The notes under the pieces: generated by a model
Seen by the model: only the letters and a program-made list of their open reading frames with translations
Databases searched by the model: none
What the model was told of the DNA's origin: nothing
Translations under genes and position numbers: made by a program
Shown: piece after piece, positions 13,156 through 58,773 of the stretch
Layout: every line of letters starts with the position of its first letter
How positions within the stretch are numbered: position 1 is the first letter of the stretch
Assembly: GCA_963840935.1 (NCBI GenBank)
Contig: CAWJAS010000001.1
Span: 192,875-256,874, forward strand
DNA: 64,000 nucleotides
Direction of reading: 5' to 3'
Origin: Candidatus Magasanikiibacteriota bacterium
GTDB taxonomy: Bacteria; Patescibacteriota; Patescibacteriia; Magasanikbacterales; GWA2-37-8

Positions 13156-14115
13156 TTATTGCGTAAATTGAACTATCACTACTTCCGGAACGGCAAAAAA
13201 ACGTAAGGAAGTCCCTGATTCTCCGGCGCCGACAGAAGTGTAAACTGGCGCGTCATTAAAATAATTTAAACCGCGATAATATTCTTTTTGAAGTATTGTT
13301 TGCGCTCCGGCCAAAGGACCAAAAAATGGAATCCAAATTTGCCCGCCGTGCGTGTGTCCGGCAAGTGTTAAATCAGGGTAAGGTAAATTTGTTGGGTATT
13401 CCAAAATTCCATCCGGATTGTGAGTTACAAAAATTAAGGGAATATTTTTATCCCAATTTGTTAATTCAGAAAAATTCGGTTTGTTTTTCCAAATTTCCGC
13501 CAGTCCAAATAAGCAGATTTTTTGGTTTTTGATTTCTACGCACTCAAGTGAATTATTTAATAGTTTAAAACCAAAATTGTTAAAACGATTAATAACTAAT
13601 TCAGACCTGTCACCGGTGTATTTTTCCGGCTTGGTTCTCACAGTGCCCCCGATGCCGTATTCATGATTGCCAAGAACATAATAAACAGGATATTTTTGAA
13701 GAATTTGCAATGGCAAAAGATATTCACTTTCGTCCTCAAAAGTTCCTTCGTTGCTTATCATATCCCCGCCAAAGATAACAATATCTGGCTTGGCAGTATC
13801 TATTTTTTCGGCTACTTTTTTGCTCCAGCCGGTTTTTTTGTGCATTCCGACTTGAATGTCGCTCACAAAAGCGATTTTTATTCCTTCCAGTTTTTCATTT
13901 TTAATTTCAATTTTTTTTGTAACAAGCAAATAAGGCTCAACAAGTGTTGAATAAAGCGCCGTGATTATACCGGTAAAAAAAATAAAAATAAAAATTGCGC
14001 CAATAAATTTATTACGGTTGAAAAATAAATTCGGTTTTTTTCGGTCGCGGGCGATAAAAAAAATCAAGAGCCCTGCCACCAAAATATACCCGTACGTAAT
14101 TATTAAGAGAAACAT
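13156..14115 (-). CDS. Membrane-anchored calcineurin-like metallophosphoesterase (YkuE-like)
   Basis: N-terminal TM helices. Motifs GDMISNEG, VLGNHEYG and GHTHGGQIW. Confidence 0.75.
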   Translation of the reverse strand: MFLLIITYGYILVAGLLIFFIARDRKKPNLFFNRNKFIGAIFIFIFFTGIITALYSTLVEPYLLVTKKIEIKNEKLEGIKIAFVSDIQVGMHKKTGWSKKVAEKIDTAKPDIVIFGGDMISNEGTFEDESEYLLPLQILQKYPVYYVLGNHEYGIGGTVRTKPEKYTGDRSELVINRFNNFGFKLLNNSLECVEIKNQKICLFGLAEIWKNKPNFSELTNWDKNIPLIFVTHNPDGILEYPTNLPYPDLTLAGHTHGGQIWIPFFGPLAGAQTILQKEYYRGLNYFNDAPVYTSVGAGESGTSLRFFAVPEVVIVQFTQ

Positions 14116-22059: not shown

Positions 22060-23454
22060 TTAACGTTTTAATTTTCTCATTTTAATTATAATTGGAGCGG
22101 CGAAAAAATTCCACTGTTCTCGCATTCTTCTTTTTAGAAAATATATGTAAGAAACATGGAGCGAAGTTTTTTGTTTGATATCGATTTCAAAAACCGGAGG
22201 GTTTGAATCAATTTGTTTGAAACCAAGAATTTTTGGGTGGCGAACGCCTTTGCCACGCGATGGCTTGTGGACGCGCATCATTTTATTCAAAAATTCTTTT
22301 AATTCTTCTTTGGAAATCACTGTTTTTTTGCCTTCTTCCGCTTGTTTGATGAGGGGGAATATTTGATGTACCCGATATTGCGTCAAGGCACTCACAAAAA
22401 TAATCGGCGCGTAGTCCAAATGAGGAAAGTTTCTGATTACCATGGATTTCACTTCATTTCTGAAGGCGTCTTCATTATCTTCGGCCAAATCCCACTTGTT
22501 TACGATAATAATCACGCTTTTGGCATGTTGTTGCAAGAAACCGCCCAGTTGTTTGTCTTGGTCCGAAATCGGTTCAGAGGCGTCCAGGACAAATAGAATA
22601 ATGTCGGCTCTTTCAATTGCTTCCAAGCTTTTGCCGATGCCTTGGCGTTCAAGTTCATGGCCGACTTTTGTTTTTCGTCTAATTCCGGCTGTATCGATAA
22701 AAATAATTTGTTCATTATCCACCTCGACTAAAGTGTCGTGCGGTTCGCGAGTGGTGTGTGGCATATCAGAAACAATCACCCTGTCTTCCCCGATTAATTT
22801 ATTGAACAACATTGATTTGCCCACGTTTGGCTTTCCGATTAAAGCGACTTTGATAGCCGGTTTTTCAATAACTTTTTTGGGTCTAAGTTTTGCTTTTGAT
22901 AAATTCTTGAAAATCAAATCCAATAAATCACCGGCGTTACTGCCGTTTGTGGCTGATACCGGGAAAGGTGCGCCAAGAGCAAGCGACGCCCATTCTTTAT
23001 CGTAAACCCTTTCCCTGTCAACGGCGGTATCGGCTTTATTGCCAACCAAAATAATCGGTTTTTTGTTTTTATTTTTGGTGCGGATTTTTTTTGCCAGTTC
23101 TTTTTCCTGAGGAAGAATCCCGTTTTTTATATCGATAACAAACAATATCAAATCAGCCTCCTTTAAAGCAATATCCGTTTGCTCTATGATATCATTTTCA
23201 AGGCTAACGGTTTTGTCGAAAGTAAGTCCGCCCGTATCAACCAATTGGAAACTTTTGCCTCGCCAGACGACATTTTTTATGTTTCGTGTTCTCGTGGTGC
23301 CCGGCACATCAGAAACCAAAGCATGGGCTGATTCAGTCAAGCGGTTAAAAAGAGTAGATTTGCCCACGTTAACTCGTCCAATCAAAACAACGGAAGGTAA
23401 ATTTGATTTTTTAATTTTTGCGAGCGTTGCCATATTATTATTCTTTAATGTCAA
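22060..23454 (-). CDS. der: GTPase Der (EngA), tandem GTPase domains + KH-like domain
   Basis: Two G1 motifs (GRVNVGKSTLFNRL and GKPNVGKSMLFNKL). Confidence 0.9.
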   Translation of the reverse strand: MTLKNNNMATLAKIKKSNLPSVVLIGRVNVGKSTLFNRLTESAHALVSDVPGTTRTRNIKNVVWRGKSFQLVDTGGLTFDKTVSLENDIIEQTDIALKEADLILFVIDIKNGILPQEKELAKKIRTKNKNKKPIILVGNKADTAVDRERVYDKEWASLALGAPFPVSATNGSNAGDLLDLIFKNLSKAKLRPKKVIEKPAIKVALIGKPNVGKSMLFNKLIGEDRVIVSDMPHTTREPHDTLVEVDNEQIIFIDTAGIRRKTKVGHELERQGIGKSLEAIERADIILFVLDASEPISDQDKQLGGFLQQHAKSVIIIVNKWDLAEDNEDAFRNEVKSMVIRNFPHLDYAPIIFVSALTQYRVHQIFPLIKQAEEGKKTVISKEELKEFLNKMMRVHKPSRGKGVRHPKILGFKQIDSNPPVFEIDIKQKTSLHVSYIYFLKRRMREQWNFFAAPIIIKMRKLKR

Positions 23455-25132
23455 TTCCTAAAATAATTAAAATATCGGTTTCAGGATTAAATTTGGCGCC
23501 TACCTCAACTGTGCCTTCACCTTCGGATTGATAATTTTCATGGAGCCAATCGGGGATTGTCATTTCTAATCGCGCGGGAATTTGCTTGAGCAAATATTCC
23601 AAAAGTTCGTTGGAGACGGATTGATTAATTAAATATATTGTGGTGGTGGCGATTGGTCGTTTTGCGCAGTTGCCAATGGTAATAATGTTGAACCCTTGGT
23701 CGGCTAACTGGCTTTGAGTGCGACTGGCCAAGCCGGCTCGCCATGTGCCATTTTGAATTTCTATTTTGGCATTTTCCAAAAAAGCCAATTGCTGAGTTGT
23801 GGTTGTGGAGAAAGTGCTGGTCGGAATTAGCGCGCTTGAAGTGGTGTTTATCGCATTGTTATTAAATTGTGAATCACTGTTTGTTTGCTCATTATAAGCC
23901 AGGGGAGTGTCGCTTGGTATGGCGGAACTGAAGCTGGTTTGGAAAATGTTTGTGATTGCCAGATTAATCGCGGAATAATCTCCGCCTTTGGGCGCAAGCA
24001 TAAAGGCGCCATTTGGCGCGATATATGAATAAAGGTATCCTTCGGGTGATGAATCGATAACCAAGTTTTTAATTTTTGAAGAGTCGATATCTTTGGCAAT
24101 GGAAGCCAAATAAATCATTTGTGAAAATTCAAGATTTGTATCGATATTATCAGAAAGCGATGTCCATATTTTGTGCAAAGTCGTCGGGCTGGTAAGCGTG
24201 CCAAAAGACATTATTTTGTCTTTTAAGGCGGAAATTATTTGTTGTTGCCGTCTTGAGCGAGCAAAATCAGAATTTTCACCATTGGTACCGTGTCTTGAAC
24301 GAGCGAATTTTAAAGCCAAGTCGCCGTTAAATTGCTGTGTGCCGGATGTGAAAGTAATGGTTTGATAAGAATAATTTTCTCCCGGGTATGAATAATCGGA
24401 AAAGGGTTGGGCGACATTTACCTCAATACCGCCAACAGCGTCAATCATTTGTTCAAATGCGTTAAAATTAACTCGCGCATAATACGGTATCTCCAGCCCG
24501 AATGTTTCGGCAAAAATTTGTCGCGCGTAATCTCCGCCTTGACCGGGGTTTAATTTTTCGCCTAGCGCATCAGCATAATTTATGCGTTGGGTGCCGTAGT
24601 TTGCGATTTTCACTCCCAGGTCCCGAGGGATGGAAACCATTGATACTTCTTTGGTGCTTGGTTTAATACTCACGATAATATTTGTATCTGAAAGGTAAGG
24701 TCCGTCATGCCCCGGTCCGCCGATTCCAAGAAGCAAAATATTGATTCTGTCTTCTTCCTCGCCGATTAATGATTTATCGTTGTAAAATAAAATATTTTTT
24801 ACAGTATCAAAAAAACCGATTTTTTTTGACCTGAGAAGTCCGCCGTTTTCACCACCGGTTCCGGCGACGACAAGCGCTCGAATACCCAAAATAGCAACCA
24901 AAATAATCGTTAAGCCGACAAAAAAATAAAGAAGTGTAATTCTTTTGTTTTTTATTGGGTTATTATCATTGGTTTTAATCAGGCTTTTTTCGCTTTCCGG
25001 AGCCAAAAAATTGACTGATTGTGATTTTGCTTTCAGTTCGCGCATAAATAACATAAACACGGCCATTGTATCATATATATAGCCTTTAATCAAATAATGG
25101 CCAAAAGTATAAATATTGATGTTTTTTGGCAA
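23438..25132 (-). CDS. LytR-CpsA-Psr (LCP) family cell-envelope transferase with extended C-terminal domain
   Basis: N-terminal TM helix. LCP core INILLLGIGGPGHDGPYLSDTNIIVSI...SIPRD. Overlaps der by 17 nt. Confidence 0.7.
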   Translation of the reverse strand: MPKNINIYTFGHYLIKGYIYDTMAVFMLFMRELKAKSQSVNFLAPESEKSLIKTNDNNPIKNKRITLLYFFVGLTIILVAILGIRALVVAGTGGENGGLLRSKKIGFFDTVKNILFYNDKSLIGEEEDRINILLLGIGGPGHDGPYLSDTNIIVSIKPSTKEVSMVSIPRDLGVKIANYGTQRINYADALGEKLNPGQGGDYARQIFAETFGLEIPYYARVNFNAFEQMIDAVGGIEVNVAQPFSDYSYPGENYSYQTITFTSGTQQFNGDLALKFARSRHGTNGENSDFARSRRQQQIISALKDKIMSFGTLTSPTTLHKIWTSLSDNIDTNLEFSQMIYLASIAKDIDSSKIKNLVIDSSPEGYLYSYIAPNGAFMLAPKGGDYSAINLAITNIFQTSFSSAIPSDTPLAYNEQTNSDSQFNNNAINTTSSALIPTSTFSTTTTQQLAFLENAKIEIQNGTWRAGLASRTQSQLADQGFNIITIGNCAKRPIATTTIYLINQSVSNELLEYLLKQIPARLEMTIPDWLHENYQSEGEGTVEVGAKFNPETDILIILGIDIKE

Positions 25133-25292: not shown

Positions 25293-25799
25293 ATGGCGCA
25301 AGACATTACCAAAACTAACGTTAATACCGGCGATATTATTTTTTATTGGCAAATTAGAGAGTATGAAAAATATTATCGAAGCAAGCGCTGGTATTTGGTA
25401 ATGAGTTTAGTCGCCATTCTATTGATTATTTACGCGGTTTATTCGGCGAATTATTTGTTTGCTTTAATGATCGTGCTTTTTGGCATTATTCTTATAATGC
25501 AGGAAATGAATGAACCCGGAGAAATTGATTTTGGTATTTGCGAAACTGGTATTATTGTCGGGAATAAATATTATTCATTTTCGGAATTGGAGAAATATTG
25601 GATTGTATATAGCCCACCAGACACAAAAACTTTGTATTTTGAATTAAAAGGAATAATATTTCATCGATTGAGTATAAATTTAGAAGATGCCAATCCTAAT
25701 GAAATTAGGACGTTTTTGAACCAATATTTATTTGAAGATTTGGAAAAAGAAGAAGAGCCGTTAAGCGATCGGATTGGTCGATTGTTGAAGTTGCAATAA
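25293..25799 (+). CDS. Hypothetical 2-TM membrane protein (AT-rich, native-like)
   Basis: ORF with two hydrophobic helices, flanked by tRNA-Val and tRNA-Arg. Terminator hairpin at 25820-25850. Confidence 0.5.
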   Translation: MAQDITKTNVNTGDIIFYWQIREYEKYYRSKRWYLVMSLVAILLIIYAVYSANYLFALMIVLFGIILIMQEMNEPGEIDFGICETGIIVGNKYYSFSELEKYWIVYSPPDTKTLYFELKGIIFHRLSINLEDANPNEIRTFLNQYLFEDLEKEEEPLSDRIGRLLKLQ

Positions 25800-25965: not shown

Positions 25966-28089
25966 TTGTTTATGAATATGGATTTTAATTTGCCAGTGGG
26001 AAAAATCAACAAGGTTGGCGCGGTAACGGCCAAAAAGTTAAAACGTCTTGGTATAGAAAAAGCCGGAGATTTGTTATATTGGTTTCCTTTTCGCTATGAA
26101 GATTATCGCAAAATATTGCCGATAAAAGATCTTGCCGATGGTGTGGAAGCGACCATTCGCGGACGTGTGGAGATGATTGCCAACAGGCGAAGCTTTCGAA
26201 GTCGTAAAAATATAACCGAAGCCTTGGTCCATGACGATTCAGGTAGTATTAGAGTTACTTGGTTTAATCAGCCATTTATAATTAAAAATATTAAAGCGGG
26301 AGAAGTTATTTTTTTGTCGGGTAAAATAAAATCAGACATGCTCGGGGCTAGGCTCCTAAGCCCGATGTATGAAAAAGAGACAAAAAAAGAAACAACACAC
26401 ACGGCTCGCTTGGTGCCAATATATCCTTCAACCGGCGGGCTAACTCAAAAACAAATTCGATATTTGATATCACAAGTTTTGCCGATTGCCGAATCGGTTA
26501 AAGATTGGATGCCTAGCGAAATAATAAAAAGATTTTCTCTTATTCCTATTTCATCGGCATTACTTGGAATTCATTTTCCAAAAAATGAAAGTGAATTAAA
26601 AAAAAGCACGGAAAGACTTAAATTTGATGAATTATTTTTGATACAATTAAGAGCGCAGATTGCCAGAAAAAAGCAAAAAAAAGAGAAAGCTCCAGCAATA
26701 GTTTTTCACGAACAAGAAATTAAAAAATTTGTTGGCAGTTTACCGTTTGCTTTAACCGTTACACAAAAAATATCGGCCTGGGAAATACTCAGAGATTTGG
26801 AAAAAAATAATCCAATGAACCGATTACTGTCGGGTGATGTTGGGTCGGGGAAAACTATTGTTGCAACCATTTCTCTTTTAAATGTTATTTTGAGCGGTTA
26901 TCAAGGTGTGCTTTTGGCGCCAACAGAAATTTTAGCCCGTCAGCATTTTGATACCATAAGCGGTCTTTTGGGTGATAAATTAAAAATCGCGCTTTTGACT
27001 CGCTCACAATATTTTTTAGCTGGTCATTCGAGTCCTCGTGGGGATGACACAGCAGAGCTTTTTTCGAAGAAACAAATAATTGAAGAAATAAGCGAAGGGA
27101 AGGTCGATATTGTAATAGGCACTCACGCTTTGCTTTCCGAAAAAGTACGGTTCAAAGACATCGGTTTGATTATTGTTGACGAACAGCATCGTTTTGGAGT
27201 TAATCAAAGAAAGGCGATTAAAGACAAAACAAAAGAAATATCCGCTCATTATTTGAGTATGACAGCCACTCCGATTCCGCGTTCGCTTGCTCTTACAATT
27301 TATGGCGATTTGGATTTATCAATTATCAATGAGATGCCTGTGGGAAGAAAACCGATTATAACTCGTTTGGTGGAGCCAAAGAACAGAGCGAAAGCTTATG
27401 AATTTATTCGCGGGCAAATTAAAAATGGCAGACAAGCTTTTGTTGTCTGCCCCTTGATTGAAGACACAAACGAAACAGAGAATATTTTGCCCGGCTTGTC
27501 ATTTAATGAAGAAAAAAAGACCGTAATGAAAGAATATGAAAAATTAGTCAAAGAAATTTTTCCTGATTTGGTGGTCGGGTTTATTCATGGTAAATTAAAA
27601 CCACCGGAAAAAGAATTGGCAATGAAAAAATTTAAAAATAATGAAATTAATATTTTGATTTCAACATCGGTTGTTGAAGTGGGAGTGAATATTCCAAATG
27701 CCAGTGTGATGATGATAGAGGGTGCGGAAAGATTTGGTATGGCCCAATTACATCAGTTTAGGGGGCGTGTTGGTCGTTCAATTTATCAATCATATTGCTT
27801 GTTATTTACCGAATCAAAGTCAGAAAAAGTATCCGACCGACTTCAGTATTTTGAAAAAAATATTGATGGGTTTAAATTGGCGGAAAAGGATTTGGAAACG
27901 CGAGGGCCGGGCGAAGTATATGGCATTCGACAAAGCGGACTTATGAATTTGCGTTTGGCTAAATTAACAGACCAAGATATTATAAAAAAATCCCGCCAAG
28001 CGGCGGAGCAAATTGCGCTAAAGGCCGATAATCATTCATTGTTAGTTAGTAAGCTGGTTGACTGGGAAAAAACTTTGCACTTGGAATAA
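25966..28089 (+). CDS. recG: ATP-dependent DNA helicase RecG
   Basis: Wedge domain plus helicase motifs GDVGSGKT and DEQHRFG. Confidence 0.9.
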   Translation: MFMNMDFNLPVGKINKVGAVTAKKLKRLGIEKAGDLLYWFPFRYEDYRKILPIKDLADGVEATIRGRVEMIANRRSFRSRKNITEALVHDDSGSIRVTWFNQPFIIKNIKAGEVIFLSGKIKSDMLGARLLSPMYEKETKKETTHTARLVPIYPSTGGLTQKQIRYLISQVLPIAESVKDWMPSEIIKRFSLIPISSALLGIHFPKNESELKKSTERLKFDELFLIQLRAQIARKKQKKEKAPAIVFHEQEIKKFVGSLPFALTVTQKISAWEILRDLEKNNPMNRLLSGDVGSGKTIVATISLLNVILSGYQGVLLAPTEILARQHFDTISGLLGDKLKIALLTRSQYFLAGHSSPRGDDTAELFSKKQIIEEISEGKVDIVIGTHALLSEKVRFKDIGLIIVDEQHRFGVNQRKAIKDKTKEISAHYLSMTATPIPRSLALTIYGDLDLSIINEMPVGRKPIITRLVEPKNRAKAYEFIRGQIKNGRQAFVVCPLIEDTNETENILPGLSFNEEKKTVMKEYEKLVKEIFPDLVVGFIHGKLKPPEKELAMKKFKNNEINILISTSVVEVGVNIPNASVMMIEGAERFGMAQLHQFRGRVGRSIYQSYCLLFTESKSEKVSDRLQYFEKNIDGFKLAEKDLETRGPGEVYGIRQSGLMNLRLAKLTDQDIIKKSRQAAEQIALKADNHSLLVSKLVDWEKTLHLE

Positions 28090-28110
28090 TAAATGATGCA
28101 CTTTAACGGG

Positions 28111-28139
28111 TTGACATAATTACGTTTTTGTGCTATTTT
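28111..28139 (+). promoter_or_regulatory. Promoter TTGACA-17-TATTTT upstream of the GC-rich small gene
   Basis: TTGACA at 28111-28116. Followed by a 5' UTR hairpin ttccggcaa-gggttat-ttgccggaa (28152-28176) and an AAGGAGG SD. Confidence 0.5.
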
Positions 28140-28206
28140 TTTTTCATCAAGTTCCGGCAAGGGTTATTTGCCGGAAGCAAACGGTTGGCAAAAAAAGGAG
28201 GGAAAC

Positions 28207-28665
28207 ATGGGTGCTCGTCAAAGAAGGGACTTGGAACATGCGGTCGCGCCAGTGTCGGGGAGGCGCGAAAAGGAGACCGACAAGATCAAGGTGATGATCA
28301 TGAGGCCGGGAAACGGCCATTACGAACCTTTTTTGTTCCGGCTTAGCTTGACCGACTTTTTTCAAGGGAAAATGGTTCAGGTCTACGGGCGTCCGGATCC
28401 TGACGCGAGCGATCGGATAATAAAAGTGCAGAAGCTCGTTTTCCGTTCGAATAAGGATTTGGACAAGGTTGTTCAGTTGGCAACCGACAGCATCATCGGT
28501 TTTCACCGTGCGAAAGCGGTTGTCCGCTACGGAGAAAAGCCCGACCTGTCCGGTGTGGGCGACCAAGTCAGTCGTTTTCTCGACAAGCTCGTTCGGCATC
28601 CGGCGATTGAAGTGAACGCTTCTTTGTTCCCCAACTTTTCTCGCCTCGGCACCAAACCCGCCTAG
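28207..28665 (+). CDS. Hypothetical 152-aa protein encoded in a GC-rich (about 53% GC) island
   Basis: Strong SD AAGGAGG 5 nt upstream of the ATG at 28207. Own promoter and terminator (agtcccac...gtgggact + T-run, 28701-28739). No recognizable family. Confidence 0.55.
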   Translation: MGARQRRDLEHAVAPVSGRREKETDKIKVMIMRPGNGHYEPFLFRLSLTDFFQGKMVQVYGRPDPDASDRIIKVQKLVFRSNKDLDKVVQLATDSIIGFHRAKAVVRYGEKPDLSGVGDQVSRFLDKLVRHPAIEVNASLFPNFSRLGTKPA

Positions 28666-28752
28666 AATTGCAATCAACCCCAAATAGCTCTTTACGAAAA
28701 AGTCCCACCTCGCGTCATGTGAAGTGGGACTATTTTTTTATTTGAAATTTTT

Positions 28753-30090
28753 TTATGTGTGTTTAATAATTTCCTGGATATTTTTTATATTCAATACTTT
28801 TAAGTTTTTTGTTTTAATATCTTTTTTCCCTGTATTAGCCAAAGCTCTTTTCAGACCGAGTTGTTCGCATTCTCTCAGCCGTTTTTCGGTGAAAGAAACA
28901 GGCCTGATTTCTCCGGATAATCCGATTTCGCCAAAGGCGGCCATATCGCTTCCAAGGGGCTTGTCTTTGTAGGCGCTCGCAATAGCAAGTGCCGCGGCCA
29001 AATCCGCCGCCGGTTCGTCGGCAGTTAGCCCACCTACCACATTAAGATGAATATCATATTGAGCCAGACTGAGTCCGGCTCGGCGTTCAAGCACGGCCAC
29101 AAGCATGTGCAAACGATTCAAATCAAAACCGCTTGCTTTGCGCACCGGATAGCCGAATGAAGTTTTATTGACGAGCGCTTGAACCTCGCAAAGAATCGGT
29201 CGACTTCCTTCCATCAGGCAGGCCACCACATTTCCGGGTGCGTCTTCCACCCTTTCTCCCAAAAAAGCGGCTGAAGGATTTTTTACTTCTACAAGTCCGT
29301 TTTCTTCCATGGTGAAAACACCGACCTCATCGGTTGAACCAAAACGATTTTTTGCCGCTCGCAAGATTCTGAATTGATGGAAACGGTCTCCTTCCAAGTA
29401 AAGAACAGTATCAACCAGATGCTCCAAAGTTTTTGGGCCGGCAACATTTCCGTCTTTTGTGACTTGGCCGATCAAAACAACAGTCAAGTGTTCGCTTTTT
29501 GCCATTTCCATTAGTTTGACCGTGCAAGCGCGCACCTGGGCCAAATTGCCGGCTTCTCCTTCTGAATCAATTGAAAATATTGTTTGGATGGAATCAACCA
29601 CGGTAAGCGTTGGCCGTTCTTTTTTTATGGTGGTAATAATCGTTTCTATATTTGATTCATTTCCGATTTTTAGTCCGGCGGATTTAATATTTAATCTGTC
29701 GGCTCGCATTTTTATTTGTTCGGCTGATTCTTCTCCGGAAATATATAGAGCAGGGGAGAGTAATCCGGTAAGTTGAAGCGCCAAAGTTGATTTGCCGATT
29801 CCCGGTTCTCCGCCAAGAAGAATAAGTGAACCCGGCACAAGACCGTTTCCAAGAACCCTGTCCAGTTCACTGATGTTGGTTTTTATTCGAATTGTATTTT
29901 CATTTTTAATTTCATTTAGATTCGATAATTTTGCCGGCGTGAAATTATTTTCAGAGGGCTGTTCTTTGGCGATTGCTTTTTGCTCTTTTTCGATTGTTCC
30001 CCATTTACCGCATTCCAAACAGCGCCCAACCCATTTCTGGAATTGAGCGCCACAATTGTTGCAGGTGAAAATAGTTTGATTATTTTTCAT
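28753..30090 (-). CDS. radA: DNA repair protein RadA/Sms
   Basis: N-terminal C4 zinc finger CNNCGAQFQKWVGRCLECGKWG. RecA-like GGEPGIGKSTLALQ. KNRFG motif. C-terminal Lon-like domain. Confidence 0.9.
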   Translation of the reverse strand: MKNNQTIFTCNNCGAQFQKWVGRCLECGKWGTIEKEQKAIAKEQPSENNFTPAKLSNLNEIKNENTIRIKTNISELDRVLGNGLVPGSLILLGGEPGIGKSTLALQLTGLLSPALYISGEESAEQIKMRADRLNIKSAGLKIGNESNIETIITTIKKERPTLTVVDSIQTIFSIDSEGEAGNLAQVRACTVKLMEMAKSEHLTVVLIGQVTKDGNVAGPKTLEHLVDTVLYLEGDRFHQFRILRAAKNRFGSTDEVGVFTMEENGLVEVKNPSAAFLGERVEDAPGNVVACLMEGSRPILCEVQALVNKTSFGYPVRKASGFDLNRLHMLVAVLERRAGLSLAQYDIHLNVVGGLTADEPAADLAAALAIASAYKDKPLGSDMAAFGEIGLSGEIRPVSFTEKRLRECEQLGLKRALANTGKKDIKTKNLKVLNIKNIQEIIKHT

Positions 30091-30107
30091 TTTTTTCCAC
30101 TCTTTAT

Positions 30108-31649
30108 TTATGGCTTAATTCCAATTATTCTATAAATATAGCATCCTTTGTTTTTTGCATATTTTTTCATTACCCAATAATCGCTAATTGTTTTTGCTAC
30201 TCTAACGCATGTTTTTGGTGTGAAGTCATACCCTGGTATTGGTATCGGACCGTATGAAGCGCAAGACCCCGATGAACCACCACCCATTTCAACCATTTCA
30301 TAAGGTAAGCCGGCGCCACCAGTATACATAAACCAATGTCCGGCATTCGGAGACCAAAAAAAATCACCAAATTTTAATCCATCTTTCTTGTTTTTGACAT
30401 CTTCAATGGCCTCAGCGCATGTTTTATCTTTTCCTCCACCCATAAAATACGGTTCTTTTTCGGAAGTTTTTAATTGGGGCAATGGCTCTTGTTTCCCGGG
30501 GAATCCGGCACATTTATACAATTGATAGATCCAAGTTCCGCAATCTCCGCACATCCTTCCTTTATAATAGCTTAATTCTTTGCTGTTATAAATTGCCAGT
30601 AATTCGGCTTGATATGTTTTGTCTTTATTTAATAATTTTGCTTGATCTGATGTCAGGGCTTTTAAACTTTCCTTGGTATAATTATTTGGATTTGGGAAAG
30701 GAATTCCCACTGATAGCAAGTGATTAATCATCCAATTGACTTGCGCGCCAGTTGCTTTGCATCCATTCGCGACGGTATTTCCTCCGCGCACATAAACAGC
30801 CCCACCCTTTTGACCTAATTCAACCCATGTGGGCAATACTGCTTTTAATGAAGCCTCTGTTAATGGTCCACTTATACAAACACTTCGCATTTTTGAATAG
30901 GGGTTTTCTCCTTCGGCCATAGGTAAGGCTGTGTTTGCCATTTCGGTCAAATCAACATCATCGTCAACCGTGCCAATAAATTCAGGCATAGGTTGGTTCT
31001 CTATAAATTTTATTTTTAAAGATTTAAATACAGTCAAATCGGGATTAATCGCAAAAAGAATTGCATAAGACCCCCAGGCAATAAATAATCCGATAACAAT
31101 TTGGCTTATTCTTTTATATGCGTCAGCCTTTGCCGGCCCGCCTCCGGAAGTAATTATTTTTATGCCCATCATTATGAGCATTACAATTCCGATAATGCTT
31201 ACGGCCAGAACCGTAAAATTATAAACAGCAGACAAATATTCTCCTATCCAAGAAATATAAATATTACCTTCACTATCAACTTCTGATGGTGGCGCTGAAA
31301 ATTGCAAAGAAGGGACAGTAACACCAAGAATGACATCTTTAAATCCTTCAAATTCTGACTCAAGCTCGGTGGTTTCCACAATTATCTCACCACATTCTTT
31401 CATTTTTCCTATTGAACAGGAGGCACCAAATCCGCTTTTGGATTCGCACATAGTAGCATCAGTAATCAAATTACCCTCAGTGTCTTTTGGAAGAGTATTG
31501 TAAGATGAACCCTCTCCTGTTGTATCAACATTTATACACACACAACAGGAATTATATTCAACCGCTGATGTGTAATTCGGAAATAAAAAAATACCGGCTG
31601 AAACAGTAAATAACAAGGTAAAATATATTATTTTAAAGCGTAAAGACAT
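30108..31649 (-). CDS. Cys-rich membrane protein with C-terminal CHAP/NlpC-P60-like (papain-fold) putative peptidoglycan hydrolase domain
   Basis: Signal/TM. Central hydrophobic hairpin (VLAVSIIGIVMLIMMGIKIITSGGGPAKADAYKRISQIVIGLFIAWGSYAILFAI) resembling VirB2/TrbC-like pilins. C-terminal motifs CGDCGTWIYQLYKC and FWSPNAGHWFMYTGG resemble the CHAP Cys/His motifs. Confidence 0.5.
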   Translation of the reverse strand: MSLRFKIIYFTLLFTVSAGIFLFPNYTSAVEYNSCCVCINVDTTGEGSSYNTLPKDTEGNLITDATMCESKSGFGASCSIGKMKECGEIIVETTELESEFEGFKDVILGVTVPSLQFSAPPSEVDSEGNIYISWIGEYLSAVYNFTVLAVSIIGIVMLIMMGIKIITSGGGPAKADAYKRISQIVIGLFIAWGSYAILFAINPDLTVFKSLKIKFIENQPMPEFIGTVDDDVDLTEMANTALPMAEGENPYSKMRSVCISGPLTEASLKAVLPTWVELGQKGGAVYVRGGNTVANGCKATGAQVNWMINHLLSVGIPFPNPNNYTKESLKALTSDQAKLLNKDKTYQAELLAIYNSKELSYYKGRMCGDCGTWIYQLYKCAGFPGKQEPLPQLKTSEKEPYFMGGGKDKTCAEAIEDVKNKKDGLKFGDFFWSPNAGHWFMYTGGAGLPYEMVEMGGGSSGSCASYGPIPIPGYDFTPKTCVRVAKTISDYWVMKKYAKNKGCYIYRIIGIKP

Positions 31650-31651
31650 AT

Positions 31652-32329
31652 TTAGTTATATTCTTTCATGATTTCTTTGAGCAAATCTTCAATTTTTATT
31701 TCATCTAGGTAATTGACTCGTTTATTATTAATAAAAATCTCCGGAGCCTTTTTTAAGCCAATGAGTTCTGCCAATTCAGTTGATTGGTTTATTTTTGTTT
31801 TTATTTGCTCCGCTTCAAGGCAAGATGTCCATAAATTTGTGTTAATCTGTATTGTTTCTGCGACTTTCAACAAAACACTATCTTTGGTTAAATTTTTGCC
31901 GATTTTATTCAATTCATCCAGATAACTAAAAAATAATTTATTATTTTGTTCAAAAGCGCAACGCGCCGCTACATGAGGTTTCATATTGTCGGAAGCAAAT
32001 AATCCCGCCCGCGGAAAATCCAAGATAATTAAGCGGAATTTTTGCGGGTATTGCAAAGTGTAATTAGCCAGTTTGGCGTGCATTGCCCTGCTTTCGGCAG
32101 AATTAATATCCAAAAATTCTATTATCGTAATAGGCGCGCCGGGATTTCCCAAAATCGGGTCGGTCGCATTTGTTATGATGGGGGTAAAGGCATAGTCAAT
32201 CAATGGTTTCTCGGCAATTTCAACGGAAATTTCATTAACTTTTTTTATTTGATAATACAAAATTAAAACCGTGGCGAATATTGCGATTATGAGAATTAAA
32301 AAGATTTTTTTAAAATTTGTTTTTGTCAT
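31652..32329 (-). CDS. DsbA-like thioredoxin-fold protein with SxxS in place of the CxxC active site (membrane anchored)
   Basis: GNPGAPITIIEFLDINSAESRAMHAKL aligns to DsbA EFSDFQCPFCAR with both cysteines replaced. Confidence 0.55.
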   Translation of the reverse strand: MTKTNFKKIFLILIIAIFATVLILYYQIKKVNEISVEIAEKPLIDYAFTPIITNATDPILGNPGAPITIIEFLDINSAESRAMHAKLANYTLQYPQKFRLIILDFPRAGLFASDNMKPHVAARCAFEQNNKLFFSYLDELNKIGKNLTKDSVLLKVAETIQINTNLWTSCLEAEQIKTKINQSTELAELIGLKKAPEIFINNKRVNYLDEIKIEDLLKEIMKEYN

Positions 32330-32331
32330 AT

Positions 32332-33555
32332 TTATAACTGTACCTCATATATTCCCGTCTGGTATGTATCAACGAACAAAAGGCGATTATTTGTTTCGTC
32401 AAACGAGACACTATCTATTGAATAATCTCCGCCAGTATCAATTGGTGTTTTTAATCCGGTGGTCAGATCGATTTTATATAAATTATCAGGAATGCCGTCG
32501 GCAATTTTTGGTTGGATGCCGGCGCCTTGGGGCAGGTAGCTGGGTACTGCGCAATATACCGTGGTATCGCCGGCAAATGCGCATTTTTCCGGCCAGGTAT
32601 TAATTTCCAGATTCTGCCTGTGAGACCCGATTTCTTGGCCGTAGGAATTCACAATCCATAATTCCGGTTTTAAGTCCGAGCGGTTGCTGTATACGCTATA
32701 AAGAAGTTTTTTGCCGGTCGGTGACCACTCTGATTCAAAACCCATACCTTCAACCACTAATGATTTGAAATTTTCTCCGTTTAACCCGACAAGCAAAACT
32801 TCTTTGCGGTACATTCCCAAAGCTTCTCCAGTCATGGAAAAAGCGACTGTTTGTCTGCTCGGGGACCAGTCGATAGTTACTTTGTCTTGGTTACTACCCA
32901 TTTCTTCAATTATTTTTGTTCCCGTTCCGTCGTCGTTCACCGTAACAAGCCAGCGATTTTCTTCCGACAAACCGATCGCTTTGGCGGCAATTTGCGAGCT
33001 GTCATCGGAAAAAGAAAATTCTTCCCAATGTTTTGGTAAAGTGTATTGTTTTTGCGTGTCAAAGTTATAAATAATTTTTGAGTTATCCGGATACTCCAAA
33101 ACCGCCTTGTCGGCATTTTTTGCCCAAGTTACGTTTTCAACATTATAAAAAGTTTCCCCGCTCAAATCTTTGGTTGAACCGTCCGGCAAAACTTTGTAAA
33201 ACTTTCCGTCGAAAGAATTGTAATAACGCATATCGCCAGCTTTGCCCAAGGAAGAATAGTTTGCCGGCTCGCTGGTTAATTGTTTTACCGGTTCGGGGCG
33301 ATAATAGCTTGGCTCCACTCCGGGGATATATCCGGCTACCGGTAAAGCCGTTTCACCGGTGACTCCCGGTACCGTAGTGGTCGCTCTTTCGCCGGCAGGG
33401 GGGAGGGCGCCCGGAGTTCCGGGTTCACCTGGTTCGGTTGGCACATAAGCCAGTGGGCCCGCTTTTTTAAAAAAATAATACAAAGCAAAAGCTAATAGGG
33501 CGGTCACAACTATTAAGCCAATGATTAGTAATATTCTTTTTAGTTTTGCGGACAT
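32332..33555 (-). CDS. TolB-like WD40/PD40 beta-propeller protein, N-terminal membrane anchor and Pro-rich linker
   Basis: PD40-like repeats (IDWSPSRQTVAF, SEWSPTGKKLLY). Confidence 0.55.
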   Translation of the reverse strand: MSAKLKRILLIIGLIVVTALLAFALYYFFKKAGPLAYVPTEPGEPGTPGALPPAGERATTTVPGVTGETALPVAGYIPGVEPSYYRPEPVKQLTSEPANYSSLGKAGDMRYYNSFDGKFYKVLPDGSTKDLSGETFYNVENVTWAKNADKAVLEYPDNSKIIYNFDTQKQYTLPKHWEEFSFSDDSSQIAAKAIGLSEENRWLVTVNDDGTGTKIIEEMGSNQDKVTIDWSPSRQTVAFSMTGEALGMYRKEVLLVGLNGENFKSLVVEGMGFESEWSPTGKKLLYSVYSNRSDLKPELWIVNSYGQEIGSHRQNLEINTWPEKCAFAGDTTVYCAVPSYLPQGAGIQPKIADGIPDNLYKIDLTTGLKTPIDTGGDYSIDSVSFDETNNRLLFVDTYQTGIYEVQL

Positions 33556-33559
33556 ATTT

Positions 33560-34255
33560 TTATTTTATTGATTTTTTAATTTTTTTAATTCTATCGTTTT
33601 TTTGTTTTATGAGCGCTTTTTTCTCGTTTTTGAATCTATTTTGTAATTCCCGGGTTTTTGCTGAATAAACACCAAGATTAAGTCCGCATCCCCAAACAAG
33701 CACACCGAGCGCGATTGTGATGGTTAAAGCCAAAATAAGAGGTATTAGCAACAGCCACCAATAAACTAAAGCCACTCCCCAAATCGCCCTGATTATTCGA
33801 ACAGCATTTTTTGTTCTATCGGAAATTTTTGATAATTTAATATTATTTTCGGATTTTTTTATTTTTTTTAGTGCAGTTTGCTCCTCGATTTTTATCGCTC
33901 TTTGAATTTTAAGTTGCCTAATTTGCGACTTGGTCAATTGAAGACTGCGCATTTCTTCCTCACTCATATCCTCGTCTCCTTCAGGCTGTTCTCCTTCCGA
34001 TTCCTCCTCGCCTTCTTTTGGCTCTTCTTCCGGTTCTTCTTTGCCTTTTTCTTCAGTTGGCTGGCCGTATTCTTGTGGTAATAATTCCGCTTCTTCGGTT
34101 TTTGGCGCTCGACTTTCACTTTCGGCAACATCTTCTGTCCCAATAAGTCCATCGCTATAAAGCATGTCTAAATCCGAAAAACTTCGCTTTGCTTGCGCCC
34201 TTTTTTTTGCCAGTTCAACCGCTTGATTTTGCTCAGTATCTGAATTTTCCGGCAT
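33560..34255 (-). CDS. Hypothetical Glu-rich protein with C-terminal TM helices
   Basis: EEPEEEPKEGEEESEGEQPEGDEDMSEEE acidic tract. Two C-terminal TM helices. Confidence 0.4.
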   Translation of the reverse strand: MPENSDTEQNQAVELAKKRAQAKRSFSDLDMLYSDGLIGTEDVAESESRAPKTEEAELLPQEYGQPTEEKGKEEPEEEPKEGEEESEGEQPEGDEDMSEEEMRSLQLTKSQIRQLKIQRAIKIEEQTALKKIKKSENNIKLSKISDRTKNAVRIIRAIWGVALVYWWLLLIPLILALTITIALGVLVWGCGLNLGVYSAKTRELQNRFKNEKKALIKQKNDRIKKIKKSIK

Positions 34256-34256
34256 A

Positions 34257-36770
34257 TTATTTTAAAATTATTCTATTGTCGGAAGAAGCGTTCATTGAGT
34301 ATGATTTTTCTGGCGAGCCGTTTAATATCAAGTCGGACATTATTTTCTCTGTTTCAGTTCGAATTTTTTGACGAATATTGCGAGCGTTAATATTTTTTTC
34401 TTCCATGGCATTGACCAGTTTTTTTATGGCGTCTTTTTGCGGTAATATTTTAGTTTTGTATTTTTTGAGCTGTTCATTAAGCGCGTTTATTTCTAAAGCG
34501 CCGATTTTTGCCAGGTCGTCGGCCGTTAGTTCTTTGAAAATACATATTTTATCCAAACGGTTGATTAATTCCGGCGAAAATCTTTCTTTTAATTTTTCTG
34601 TCAAACGTTCGCGATTCTCAAAGCTTGACGCTTCTGAATGCCAAAATCCAAGCGAGCCCTTTTTGAACTCGTCAAAACCAAATGAAGTGGTCAATATTAT
34701 TATAGCATGTTTTAAGGATATTTTCTTGCCCGTGGCGTCAGTAATTTCACCTTCATCAAGAATCTGCAAAAGGAGCTTCAAGATGTCGGGATGAGCTTTA
34801 TCAATTTCATCAAAAAGTACCACCGAATAGGGGTTTAGTTTGAGCCGGTCGGTAAATTGATTCGCTTCTTTGTAACCCACATAACCGGCCGGTGAGCCGA
34901 GTAATTTGGAAGCGCCATATGACTCACCAAATTCCGACATATCCAGACGAATAAGAGCATCTTGATTGGGATAAACAAATTTGGCGATTGTTTTGGCCAG
35001 TTCGGTTTTGCCGACTCCGGAGGCTCCGACAAATAATAGTGAAGCATACGGACGGTTAGGGCTTGAAAGTCCCAATTCCGCTCTTCTGATTAAAGCAACC
35101 GCTTCGTCAATCGCTTCGTTTTGGCCGATGACTGATTTTTTGAGTTGGTCGGCAATTTTTATGAATTTATTGCCATTAGCAGAAATAATCTCTGAAGGTT
35201 CATTGCCTGTGATTTTGGCCACTTGATTCGCGATATCTTTTGCGGTGATTTCTCCGTAAAATTTTATTTTTTCTTTTGAGGTGATTAATTCCAGTTTGGT
35301 AATTTCTTCGGTAATTTTCTGTTCATCCTCTTTTAATTTTAAGGCATCGCCAAATCGGTCGCTTAAAGCCGCTTTTTCTTTTTCGGTTTTTATCAGGCGT
35401 AATTTATGGCGAAGTTCATATAGTGAATTTTCTTCCGGCGTATTTTTTGCCAGTAGCCGTTTGGCGGCGGCTGTTTCGTCCAAAATATCGATTGCCTTGT
35501 CCGGCAAAAATTTGCCGGAAATATATCGGTCGGACAATTCCGTTGCCGCTATTATCGCTTGGTCGCTAATTTTGATTTGATGGAATTCTTCGTATTTGCT
35601 TTTTATGCCTTTTAATATTTTTTCTGTTTCATGTGTGCTTGGTTCACGGATGATTATCGGCATAAAGCGCCTTTCCAGGGCGGCGTCGTTTTCAATAAAT
35701 TTTTTGAATTCAGCCGGAGTGGTTGACCCGATGCAATGGATATCGCCACGCGCCAGAGCCGGTTTGAGTAAATTGGCGGCATCCATGGTGCCTTGGCTGG
35801 AACCGGCCCCAACAATGTTGTGAATTTCATCAATAAAAAGAATCACATTTTGATCATTAACCGCCTCATCAACCAGTTCTTTTAATCTGGCCTCAAACTC
35901 TCCGCGATAAATCGTTCCGGCAATCATAAGACCAATATCAACCGAATAGATTTTTTTTCCACGCAATTTATCGGGAACTTTATTTTCGGTGATTTTTTTG
36001 GCCAAACCCTCGACAATAGCCGTTTTGCCGACGCCCGGGTCGCCCAAAAGCACGGGATTATTTTTTGTTCGCCTGGATAATATTTGGATTAATCTTTCCA
36101 CCTCGGCATCACGACCGATAAGCGGGTCGATTTTTTTTTGCAGTTCTGTGTCACAAAGATTAACGGCAAAATATTCCAAAGCGGTTTCTTGTTTTTTCCC
36201 TTTTTGCATTTGTCGGGGTAATCCGGGAATACTCGAGCCCGCCATATTATCTTGAATATTTTCGGTTACGTCGGCAATGTCACCTAAACTCGGGAATTGC
36301 GAAGCACTTGCATATATTGCATCAAGCTCTTTCATCACCTGTTCATTTTTAAAATTGCTTTTTGCAAAAAATTCGTTCAATTTTGAATCTTCGCAATCAA
36401 GTAAGGCGCCAAGCAGATGCTCGCTTCCCAAAAAGTTTTGCTCATTTTTTTGGGCGATAATCAAAGCTTTTTCCAGGATTATCTTTGACGCGCCGGAAAG
36501 CGGTGGCAGTTGAACTTCCGCAGTTATGTTTATTTGTTTTGTTTTTGTGAATTCGTCTTTGATTGGAAGAGTGGCGATAAATTCGCGTAATAATTCAAGA
36601 TTCGGAGTAAATCGGTTAACGATTTCTGAAGCGAGCGATCCTTTTTCGGCGGTTACGGCAAAAAAAAGATGCAAAGGTTCGACTTCGGCATTTTTTAATT
36701 CGGTAGCCATCTGCATGGCGCGAGCCAAAATTTCTTTCAGGTGAGTGGAAAATCTATTGAGAATATCCAT
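34257..36770 (-). CDS. clpC: Clp/Hsp100 AAA+ chaperone (ClpC/ClpB family, two AAA+ modules); likely start at MDILNRF
   Basis: Clp N-domain. Walker A motifs [15 protein letters not shown] and [15 protein letters not shown]. Confidence 0.85.
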
Positions 36771-36867
36771 ATATTTAACCGTAATTTTTAATATTATTAT
36801 TGACACCCATATTGTTTTTTAATTTTGTATATTATATAATGATTTTGCCGTTAATGTAAAGAAAATT

Positions 36868-58096: not shown

Positions 58097-58636
58097 TTAT
58101 CCCTCCTTGATTTTTGCCATCACGCCCAGTTCGCGAGCGATTTTTTTTAGGTTGGCCCGTTCTCTATCGGAACGAGCGGTCAAAGCCATTTTTTGATAGG
58201 CAAAACGCTTGAGAGCAAAAAAGTTGTATGGAGAAGATGAAGCCATATGGAAAAGAGTCGTCCAGTCGGAGTAAGAAGTCGCGGTGTATGTCATCATGAT
58301 GAAAGCCAACAGTTCTCGGTATTTGCCGTTGGTGTTGGATTCATAATAAAACCTGAACCAGCCGTTGAAATCAGTGATGTCTTTGGCGTCCGAAATGGAA
58401 TTTCGAAACCGCCTAACAAAACGGTCCAGTTCATTTTGCCTTTCTTCGGGCAAATAGCATCTGATTAAAAGGGCTTCTTCAAGCTCCAAATATTCGGGTA
58501 TTTCTTCTTTGCCCACGATTATATCGTAAAGCAACTGCCCTTCGCAGATGCGCTGAAGAAGGTCGGTTTTTACCTTAAAAGAAAGACTGCTCTCATCATC
58601 GATGAGAATTGAATCCAGAAGGATTTCTTGCTCCAT
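58097..58636 (-). CDS. Hypothetical 179-aa acidic protein (first gene of the cassette; start at the SD-supported ATG, M5 of the track ORF)
   Basis: SD GGGAGGG 4 nt upstream of the ATG at 58636. Minus-strand promoter TTGACA-18-TAATAT at 58669-58698. Confidence 0.5.
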   Translation of the reverse strand: MEQEILLDSILIDDESSLSFKVKTDLLQRICEGQLLYDIIVGKEEIPEYLELEEALLIRCYLPEERQNELDRFVRRFRNSISDAKDITDFNGWFRFYYESNTNGKYRELLAFIMMTYTATSYSDWTTLFHMASSSPYNFFALKRFAYQKMALTARSDRERANLKKIARELGVMAKIKEG

Positions 58637-58773
58637 CTTCCCTCCCACTTGTTGTAAAAGAACTAGTTATATTAAACATATTTTTTAATAAATGTCAATC
58701 TAAAAAAGTAAATCAAAATTTTATTATCGCGTCAATTTATATATACGATTTTATTTGTCGGTAGGCAGGCAGG

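Follow-up and report, generated by a model that had tools for sequence, protein, structure and literature searches.

A clpC–radA operon of Magasanikbacteria-type genomes with a pilin-like membrane hairpin that carries exchangeable, candidate wall-lytic heads

Between the genes for the Clp chaperone ClpC and for RadA, the genome of a Candidatus Magasanikiibacteriota bacterium (assembly GCA_963840935.1) carries four genes for membrane-anchored envelope proteins, which raises the question of what these proteins do together in the middle of a housekeeping gene string and on whose cell wall they may act. We studied this locus in a stretch of 64,000 nucleotides (nt) of contig CAWJAS010000001.1 (positions 192,875 to 256,874), referred to as the window, and number the four genes G1 to G4 in the direction of transcription. 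They encode an acidic membrane protein (G1), a stalked beta-propeller (G2), a protein of the DsbA fold (G3), and a Cys-rich protein (G4) in which a hairpin of two transmembrane (TM) helices, similar to that of VirB2/TrbC pilins, is followed by a large C-terminal domain that we call the head. The order of these genes is conserved in all relatives whose loci are long enough, and at the fixed position behind the hairpin the same relatives carry an assortment of unrelated heads. Our preferred reading, held with moderate confidence, is that the module is a wall-breaching device with exchangeable heads on a membrane-tethered hairpin.

The six open reading frames (ORFs) of the string (clpC, G1, G2, G3, G4 and radA) lie on the minus strand at 28753-36770, each with an ATG start and a TAA stop, and their coordinates are collected in Table 1 together with those of their parts. 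Tight packing of four genes between clpC and radA had already been described in the initial annotation of this DNA, and its coordinates, strand and spacing are borne out: the gaps are 1 nt (clpC/G1), 4 nt (G1/G2), 2 nt (G2/G3) and 2 nt (G3/G4), followed by 17 nt between G4 and radA. Two other assemblies that were gene-called independently have the same products of 837, 231, 407, 225 and 513 amino acids (aa). ClpC itself comprises two Clp_N repeats, AAA, AAA_lid_9, AAA_2 and ClpB_D2-small (Pfam), and upstream of its gene lies a phosphoglucomutase gene in divergent orientation. The spacing makes a single clpC-to-radA transcript plausible, and a promoter-like site upstream of clpC is a candidate for its start, though one that is a consensus match only, with promoter-like and terminator-like sites of the region not exceeding the expectation from shuffled sequence. 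The clpC operon of Bacillota has the order ctsR-mcsA-mcsB-clpC-radA-disA. Here, clpC and radA likewise share one strand and the same order, but four envelope genes stand between them and clpC has no upstream neighbour on its own strand. By this analogy, the module would have been inserted into an ancestral clpC-radA pair.

To place the locus among its relatives, we used the conserved part of G4 to scan genomes, one for each species, and obtained 15 loci, 11 of them under the label Candidatus Magasanikbacteria or Magasanikiibacteriota and the others under Patescibacteria, Parcubacteria, Gammaproteobacteria or Udaeobacter. Three of the records (L004, L011 and L013) show a typical Magasanikbacteria locus under the titles "uncultured Gammaproteobacteria" or "Candidatus Udaeobacter" and are probably mislabelled or mis-binned. 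All 13 loci that are long enough have the order pgm(-) / clpC, G1-like, G2, G3, G4, radA / recG(-), and the order from clpC to radA is also kept in two distant loci, L020 and L021, as well as in a sister strain of the window (L022). Identities to the window in the related loci are 54-67% for ClpC, 54-72% for G2 (in Magasanikbacteria), 28-50% for G3, 38-53% for the hairpin module of G4 and 60-84% for RadA, and they fall to ~41% (ClpC), ~40% (G2), 21-27% (G3) and 24-30% (G4 hairpin) in L020 and L021. The gene content around the module varies, e.g., by an htpX gene directly upstream of clpC in these two distant loci. An additional ORF of ~810-820 aa stands between radA and recG in L007 (13241-15700, minus strand) and L010 (2603-5035, minus strand); it has no family match except a weak NUDIX signal in L007, whose copy also contains a Walker A motif. 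The module is thus a conserved unit and not a chance neighbourhood, with a gene order that is not random but kept down to ~41% ClpC identity, and it forms a lineage-specific envelope operon common to the Magasanikbacteria-type genomes sampled.

G4 is the most elaborate of the four products, with an N-terminal signal peptide, a Cys-rich ectodomain, the hairpin module and the head (Table 1). The hairpin module consists of a pre-TM segment, TM1 (~138-171), the basic loop PAKADAYKR, TM2 (181-203) and an exit motif ending KFIE, and a short acidic linker joins it to the head. Cleavage of the signal peptide and the basic charge of the loop would place both soluble parts of the protein outside the cell. 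The window hairpin scores 17.9 bits with T4SS_pilin (PF18895; T4SS, type IV secretion system), below the cutoff of 26.6. Across the family, 50 of 83 members match this profile at E<=0.01 (best 4.2e-08), with the per-protein scans all hitting one region of it (positions ~4-63), and TrbC is matched in three. We therefore accept a VirB2-like origin of the hairpin at the level of the family, which is as far as the VirB2/TrbC-like hairpin of the initial annotation can be upheld, given that the window protein itself stays below threshold.

VirB2-like pilins are widespread in Patescibacteria and occur there in variable arrays, and in one system tested epibiotic growth depended on them (PMC12102498, PMC10633639, PMC12857230). 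G4 shares with these pilins (PF18895, PF04956) the signal peptide, the two hydrophobic helices, the short basic loop and the phylum, but differs from them in size and context. It is no small stand-alone pilin of ~100 aa but a protein of 513 aa whose hairpin is preceded by a Cys-rich domain of 65 aa and followed by a domain of 290 aa, and it is encoded in a housekeeping operon. In the class ABY1, T4SS loci are often found near recG and radA (PMC12102498). We scanned 36 of the 52 window ORFs of at least 150 aa for families, 8 of them giving no family match, and found no VirB4, VirB6, VirD4 or other T4SS family among the 36, so that a T4SS locus beside the module was rejected; nor was any T4SS gene present among nine large ORFs without assignment that were scanned in seven of the related loci. 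Large ORFs with a Walker A motif near recG in the relatives are PilB-type T2SSE ATPases, FtsH, GlmS or proteins without family assignment. The PilB-type (T2SSE) ATPase gene lies a few kb from recG in L008 (14665-16389, minus strand) and L011 (15576-17333, minus strand) and is not present in the window.

Not visible from the window sequence alone, and most informative about this locus, is the variability of the head. In homolog searches, wide conservation was limited to the first ~45% of G4, and the C-terminal domains of relatives were of other kinds. An all-against-all comparison of the 83 proteins yielded at least 13 unrelated clusters of C-terminal domains after the hairpin, and pairs with hairpin modules at least 85% identical have a homologous head in only 14 of 51 cases. 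The Pfam domains detected over the 83 proteins are M15_4 (10), SLT (8), VanY (6) and Metallophos (5), as well as the rarer C39_2 (2), GDSL (2) and Glucosaminidase (1). At the position of G4 in the operon, the head is a Peptidase_M15_4 domain in L002, SLT in L006, SLT plus a GDSL esterase in L007, M15 in L010 and VanY in L013b and L015, with domains lacking a family assignment in other orthologs; the recognisable heads are mostly peptidoglycan hydrolases. Some genomes carry two or three tandem G4 paralogues with different heads between G3 and radA (L009 8888-12998, L013 2914-6194, L020 8001-11295 and L021 6356-11541), and those of L021 have, in order, an NlpC/P60-like head, VanY and a head without assignment. 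The other side of the hairpin can differ as well: in L009a and L014, a Metallophos domain takes the place of the Cys-rich ectodomain. This calcineurin-like metallophosphoesterase N-terminal to the hairpin (L009 8888-11152, L014 4630-6591, and the proteins P0045, P0046, P0062 and P0063) is a hint that phosphodiester-linked wall polymers could be targets as well.

The exchange can be followed most closely between the window and its sister strain. The G4 protein of the latter (P0003, contig L022) is ~95% identical over residues 1-217 and unrelated from there on, with a weak SLT signal in its head. Nucleotide identity of the two strains is 94.3% from 38628 to 30999 (pgm, clpC, G1, G2, G3 and G4 up to residue 217); no similarity is detected by blastn from 30999 to 30095 (the G4 head), 86.4% identity is found from 30095 to 28753 (radA; 8527-9881 of L022), none at the nucleotide level from 28753 to 28013, where a small ORF has 27% protein identity, and 96.9% from 28013 onward (recG and beyond). 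The divergent tract of ~3 kb at 28013-30999 thus lies between flanks that are 94-97% identical on both sides. Given that nucleotide identity ends at 30999 (residue 217), the replacement tract starts precisely where the hairpin module ends. This pattern points to recombination at the 3' end of the hairpin sequence as the event that swaps heads even between strains, and the same tract apparently also brought a foreign radA allele and the small ORF.

The small ORF is a GC-rich gene of 152 aa between recG and radA (28207-28665, plus strand), convergent with radA, that has a strong ribosome-binding site (AAAGGAGGG), a promoter-like site at 28111-28139 and, as seen by eye, a hairpin with a T-run at ~28700-28745 after it. 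Its product has no Pfam or Rfam match. A structured RNA in the GC-rich gap at 28100-28700 had been another candidate and was rejected, with no Rfam match at E<=1 and a small protein gene in its place.

The head of the window G4 is itself of a kind that database models do not recognise: it gave no match to Pfam, NCBIfam (E<=1) or PHROGs (the latter being of no use for any of G1 to G4), and a sequence-profile search of the PDB returned nothing relevant (a Kelch match at E 1.2 is put down to chance). When the head was used by itself, a word-indexed homolog search found 2 proteins, and an exhaustive profile search found 119 relatives among 1.84 billion cluster representatives. In 104 of the 122 members of this head family, the domain directly follows this hairpin, and most of the others are short enough to be fragments. 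The initial annotation had pointed to a CHAP/NlpC-P60-like hydrolase based on DCGTW and GHWFMY motifs, and these do hold the Cys and His that are invariant over the 110 aligned members (Table 1), even if no family match is significant. Further conserved residues among the 110 are C258 and G456 (98%), D369, C380 and G428 (97%), and the FGD429 motif with Gly at 97% and Asp at 86%. The motif order of the head (VY286VRGG, ~80 residues, GDC370GTW, FGD429, GH438WFMYTGG, E454MG) is that of the E. coli NlpC/P60 proteins (YxxGG / DCSG / GDLVFF / HVGIY / third polar residue).

Profile comparisons agree with this order, and structure comparisons lean toward the same families. Alignment of the head profile with hhalign puts GDC370, FGD429 and GH438 on DCSG, GDLVFF and HVGIY of MepS (P=5.8e-4, probability 29%), and H438 and FGD429 are in register with HVGIY and GDLVFF of all four E. 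coli NlpC/P60 proteins. These four rank 1, 3, 8 and 14 against 83 E. coli control ORFs, and the chance of finding all of them in the top 14 is ~5e-4 by our own arithmetic. The AlphaFold2 (AF2) model of the head has a predicted local distance difference test score (pLDDT) of 80.8 and a predicted template modelling score (pTM) of 0.82, with a helix at domain aa 149-159 that starts at C370. In Foldseek searches with this model, MepS is the top match in the PDB together with a related peptidase (E ~0.4), followed by papain-fold deubiquitinases, and a Listeria phage tail lysin is the top match in a viral library (E 0.011, probability 0.85), in which the third match is a P60 "invasion associated endopeptidase". 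Because the motif, profile and fold results agree in direction, none of them being significant alone, we consider it likely that the head is a papain-fold domain of the NlpC/P60 or CHAP type, with E454 as the candidate third residue of its triad. CHAP domains have a Cys-His-Glu arrangement, and the spacing of 16 residues from His to Glu in the head resembles CHAP. Compared to NlpC/P60 and CHAP enzymes (MepS, MepH and NlpC of E. coli, P60 of Listeria, phage tail lysins and endolysins), the head shares the order of YxxGG, D-C, GD-hydrophobic, H-x-x-x-Y-x-G and an acidic or His third residue. It differs from them by an ~80-residue, largely helical insertion between YxxGG and DC, by its size (~290 aa as opposed to ~120), by matching no family model significantly and by being found almost only behind the hairpin. 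The head appears to represent a new, putative peptidase family that is covered by no database model.

Unlike the head, G2 is the most conserved gene of the module and evolves as slowly as ClpC. Its TM anchor is followed by a Pro-rich disordered stalk and a beta-propeller (Table 1), for which the AF2 model has a pLDDT of 85.6 overall and above 90 across most of aa 90-407. Foldseek finds 1427 PDB matches at E<=0.001, with the tricorn protease propeller (5.9e-10) and a seven-bladed oligogalacturonate lyase (2.4e-09) at the top, and the Pfam PD40 signal of 16.8 bits is below its cutoff of 20.9. On the strength of this model, we assign G2 to the PD40/tricorn-type beta-propellers. A membrane-anchored propeller had been proposed for this gene before, and that part of the proposal agrees with the model; its further description as TolB-like was too specific, with the TolB equivalog TIGR02800 reaching 22.1 bits against a cutoff of 343 over propeller blades only. 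TolB itself was ruled out as the identity of G2 by this score, by the N-terminal TM helix and stalk, and by a context lacking Tol-Pal, no Tol-Pal genes being found among the scanned ORFs of the window. G2 resembles PD40-type propellers (tricorn, TolB, oligogalacturonate lyase) in fold, in weak PD40/Tricorn_N signals and in its extracytoplasmic location, but unlike TolB it lacks the TolB N-terminal domain, has a TM helix as its anchor and a Pro-rich stalk, has no Tol-Pal partners and belongs to a monoderm organism. Among 44 orthologs of G2, polar residues including R110, E154, D157, H176, R201, R250, E261, N262, E269, R313 and D363 are invariant, as is a Cys325/Cys335 pair, and G2 may on this basis have a ligand-binding or even catalytic site.

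G3 is a TM-anchored protein of the DsbA/Thioredoxin_4 fold that matches Thioredoxin_4 (PF13462; 48.4 bits, cutoff 23.2, 1.6e-12) and DSBA (PF01323; 26.1 bits, cutoff 25.6, 8.8e-06) as well as the DsbA-like protein of PDB entry 3gyk (4.6e-08), its nearest relative of solved structure, in an alignment that places NCPYC of 3gyk on NSAES of G3. The residues S77-A-E-S80 thus replace the active-site CxxC. At this position, nine of 17 orthologs have a CxxC motif (CAEC, CARC, CPKC, CSDC, CPAC, CPDC, CIAC, CEYC), and both active-site Cys are lost in the subclade of the window (L001-L005, L007 and L022), which has SxxS-like sequences. A second Cys pair (C124/C170) is kept in 17/17, and the cis-Pro position P196 (KKAPEIFINN) is conserved in 14/14 aligned orthologs. 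Thiol-disulfide chemistry at the SAES site would be impossible in the window clade, and the ancestral G3 was very probably an oxidase. The earlier description of G3 as redox-dead is therefore correct for the window subclade, in which SAES aligns on CxxC, but cannot be generalised to the orthologs that keep the motif. Compared to DsbA/BdbD oxidases (Thioredoxin_4; 3gyk; Wolbachia alpha-DsbA1, 3f4r), G3 is alike in fold, in its membrane-anchored and extracytoplasmic position, in the cis-Pro loop and in the CxxC of its orthologs, and differs in that both active-site Cys are replaced in the window clade. A tie between CxxC loss and the NlpC/P60-like head was considered and rejected: L020 and L021 combine that head with a CxxC-positive G3.

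For G1, we found no family match in Pfam or NCBIfam. Its low-complexity N-terminal region is acidic, with 35 Asp and Glu within the first 110 residues, and is followed by a basic helix, a TM hairpin and a basic C-terminal tail. The hydrophobic stretch of 46 residues at aa 152-197 is enough for two helices, in keeping with the Glu-rich protein with two TM helices described previously. The slot between clpC and G2 is always filled by a gene of the same architecture, both in the 13 genome loci that include it and in L020 and L021. The product has 214-575 aa with little sequence conservation, an N-terminal region of low complexity or disorder, acidic in most loci, and 1-3 TM helices, usually with a basic helix before and a basic tail after them. 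The charges flanking the TM hairpin suggest that both ends of G1 are probably cytoplasmic.

How could these parts work together? In the wall-breaching device that we favour, G4 would be exported by its signal peptide and anchored in the cytoplasmic membrane by the VirB2/TrbC-like two-helix hairpin with its soluble parts facing outward. The head, as a divergent papain-fold Cys peptidase (Cys370, His438, Glu454), would cut peptide stems of peptidoglycan. The hairpin would serve as a constant socket and the head as a cassette exchanged by recombination at the hairpin end, with lytic transglycosylase, M15/VanY peptidase, C39-like, GDSL esterase and glucosaminidase domains, and others without assignment, as alternatives for the same socket. 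The stalked propeller of G2 may be a constant scaffold or a wall-binding partner. G3 is expected to assist or hold a Cys-rich exported protein, probably as an oxidase in the CxxC orthologs and possibly as a non-redox holdase or structural protein that keeps the cis-Pro loop in the SxxS window clade, and G1 could link the module to the cytoplasm. We favour a breaching device over a growth autolysin because the bond specificity of the heads is not conserved but spans glycosidic, peptide and ester bonds. On our reading, the wall would be breached much as phage lysins or VirB1-type hydrolases do it, any cut being enough.

It is less clear whose wall would be breached. We lean slightly, and tentatively, toward the wall of a host or neighbour because of the rapid strain-level diversification and the tandem variants. 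A tie to attachment or host interaction, as put forward in the initial annotation, is thus one of two candidate readings. The other is the cell's own wall, which would be opened to let surface machines through; the shortness of the membrane tether and the housekeeping context speak for it, and we regard this version as quite possible. Several observations weigh against our explanation. A head on a linker of ~20-30 residues seems badly placed for the wall of another cell and would need release or polymerisation to reach it. Some domains of G4 are not wall hydrolases (Metallophos), and the largest cluster of C-terminal domains (19 members) matches no family. The window head has no significant sequence or fold match to NlpC/P60 or CHAP (Foldseek E 0.011-0.4), and its hairpin is under the T4SS_pilin cutoff, where hydrophobic hairpins can match by composition. 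Moreover, the window G4 retains 15 Cys although the neighbouring G3 has lost its CxxC, so that a simple relation of oxidase and substrate fails in the window. Finally, the genes of tiny, densely packed genomes can keep their order without any functional tie between them.

Among the alternatives, a housekeeping autolysin acting in cis fares best, i.e., G4 as the cell's own hydrolase for growth or division that is tethered so as to cut only the wall over its own membrane, that is regulated by G1 to G3 and whose level ClpC may control. NlpC/P60 endopeptidases such as MepS, CwlO and LytE are indeed growth autolysins under tight control by proteolysis or membrane complexes, and the module is present as a single locus among core genes in every relative examined, has a G2 that evolves at housekeeping rates and a membrane tether that favours action in cis. 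We nevertheless consider an autolysin somewhat unlikely because its heads (endopeptidase, lytic transglycosylase, D-Ala-D-Ala peptidase, glucosaminidase and esterase) interchange even between strains with 94-97% identical flanks, and such interchangeable specificity is not expected where a specific cut is needed for growth. Tandem G4 paralogues with different heads in some genomes speak against it as well.

G4 might also be a functional VirB2-type pilin that a T4SS encoded elsewhere extracts, polymerises or mounts at a tip, so that its lytic heads are shown to the host surface. The family-level match of the hairpin to T4SS_pilin, the abundance, variability and (in one tested system) essentiality of VirB2-like pilins in Patescibacteria (PMC12102498, PMC10633639, PMC12857230), and the resemblance of rapid head exchange and tandem variants to host-facing diversification would all fit. 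However, neither the scanned window ORFs (VirB4, VirB6, VirD4) nor the nine large unassigned ORFs from related loci revealed such a system, a 290-aa head and an N-terminal domain on each subunit would be hard to fit into helical pilus packing, and we found no published pilin-hydrolase fusion and hence no precedent. We thus regard an armed pilin as unlikely. If it were true, head exchange would track the wall chemistry of hosts, making the locus a host-range determinant of an episymbiont with G1, G2 and G3 as the loading platform.

That there is no functional module at all, merely unrelated envelope genes packed in a streamlined genome and kept in order by vertical inheritance, seems quite unlikely to us. 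Patescibacterial genomes are dense, the window itself consists of tightly packed unrelated housekeeping genes, and promoter and terminator scans did not exceed the shuffled expectation. Against this, the order persists over distances at which nearby gene content changes (htpX; the extra ORF between radA and recG), all four products are membrane-anchored and three have outward-facing domains, and gaps of 1-4 nt imply translational coupling. A DsbA-family gene beside a gene for a Cys-rich exported protein is also a recognised functional pairing.

A polymorphic toxin-immunity locus with G4 as a contact-dependent antibacterial effector and G3 or G2 as cognate immunity is highly improbable, since its merits (a conserved N-terminal part with hypervariable enzymatic heads and tandem variants, and wall-degrading heads that are common in type VI and type VII secretion effectors) are outweighed by the fact that none of the genes varies together with the head (what lies downstream is radA or a further G4 paralogue), that G3 has one fold across all head types, and that G2 and G3 fall within the 94%-identical block of two strains with unrelated heads and were on these grounds rejected as head-specific immunity or inhibitor proteins.

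Among the closest known systems are also the VirB1-like hydrolases of monoderm conjugation (PrgK of pCF10, TraG of pIP501 and CwlT of ICEBs1), which are thought to open the wall locally (summarised in part in PMC12102498). Like G4, they are membrane-anchored and modular, mixing SLT, CHAP or NlpC/P60, and metallopeptidase domains. Unlike G4 with its pilin-like hairpin, they have a single N-terminal anchor, and they are encoded within transfer clusters instead of among housekeeping genes. To our knowledge, PrgK, TraG and CwlT are not reported to swap heads between strains at one fixed site of the chromosome. The literature that we searched contained no description of a pilin-hairpin/hydrolase fusion, of this operon or of head swapping at this locus, which is not proof of novelty. 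All parts are of known kinds, while the fixed hairpin socket with exchangeable lytic heads and the conserved operon around it appear to be new.

As for the wider surroundings, all assignable ORFs among those scanned in the window are housekeeping genes. They include genes for ribosomal proteins, secY, adk, map, an aminoacyl-tRNA synthetase gene, parB, relA/spoT, topA, dprA, pth, der, a gene of the LytR-CpsA-Psr (LCP) family, recG, pgm, htpX, lemA, rseP, pheST, dnaE, fpg, tsaD, rny and truB. The LCP gene (23438-25132, minus strand), ~3.6 kb downstream of radA and past recG, suggests that the organism attaches secondary polymers to its wall. A separate Metallophos gene is present at 13156-14115 (minus strand). 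ORFs without a Pfam match at E<=0.001 are those at 25293-25799 (plus strand) and at 53282-53995, 55656-56741 and 58097-58648 (all minus strand), with products of 168-361 aa.

Table 1. Coordinates in the window of the clpC-to-radA string, of the parts of its products and of conserved residues of the G4 head
Feature	Position	Strand	Length or residues	Remarks
Promoter-like site	36831-36860	(-)		TTTACA-18-TATAAT; 11/12 consensus matches; upstream of clpC; best on strand
clpC	34257-36770	(-)	837 aa	First gene of the string; ATG is the start used by independent gene callers
G1	33560-34255	(-)	231 aa	
G1 TM hairpin	33665-33802		aa 152-197	
G2	32332-33555	(-)	407 aa	
G2 TM anchor	33460-33549		aa 3-32	
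G2 stalk	33328-33459		aa 33-76	Pro-rich, disordered
G2 beta-propeller	32335-33288		aa 90-407	
G3	31652-32329	(-)	225 aa	
G3 SAES site	32090-32101		aa 77-80	At the position of the active-site CxxC
G4	30108-31649	(-)	513 aa	15 Cys in total
G4 signal peptide (predicted)	31563-31649	(-)	aa 1-29	Hydrophobic N-terminus ending TSA-VEY, read from sequence; equivalents in orthologs
G4 Cys-rich ectodomain	31368-31562	(-)	aa 30-94	C35, C36, C38, C68, C78, C86; variable among orthologs
G4 hairpin module	30999-31367	(-)	aa 95-217	Strongly conserved
G4 C-terminal domain (head)	30111-30986	(-)	aa 222-513	~290 aa
Y286 in VYVRGG	30792-30794	(-)		100% conserved, 110 members
C370 in GDCGTW	30540-30542	(-)		100% conserved, 110 members
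H438 in GHWFMYTGG	30336-30338	(-)		100% conserved, 110 members
E454 in EMG	30288-30290	(-)		95% conserved, 110 members; 16 residues after H438
radA	28753-30090	(-)	445 aa	Pfam match; last gene of the string

Little is known of how Patescibacteria handle their own walls and those of their hosts, and annotation is lacking for the majority of their envelope proteins. The operon described here is conserved and easily recognised in the sampled Magasanikbacteria-type genomes, and strains that are ~95% identical but carry different heads amount to a natural experiment. The clade-specific change from CxxC to SxxS in G3, in an operon that is otherwise unchanged, offers a clear-cut opportunity to study what the DsbA fold does besides redox chemistry. 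Should host walls be the substrate of the heads, the type of cassette would be a candidate host-range marker that is directly testable in metagenomes; should the substrate be the wall of the cell itself, its breaching would tolerate any bond specificity.

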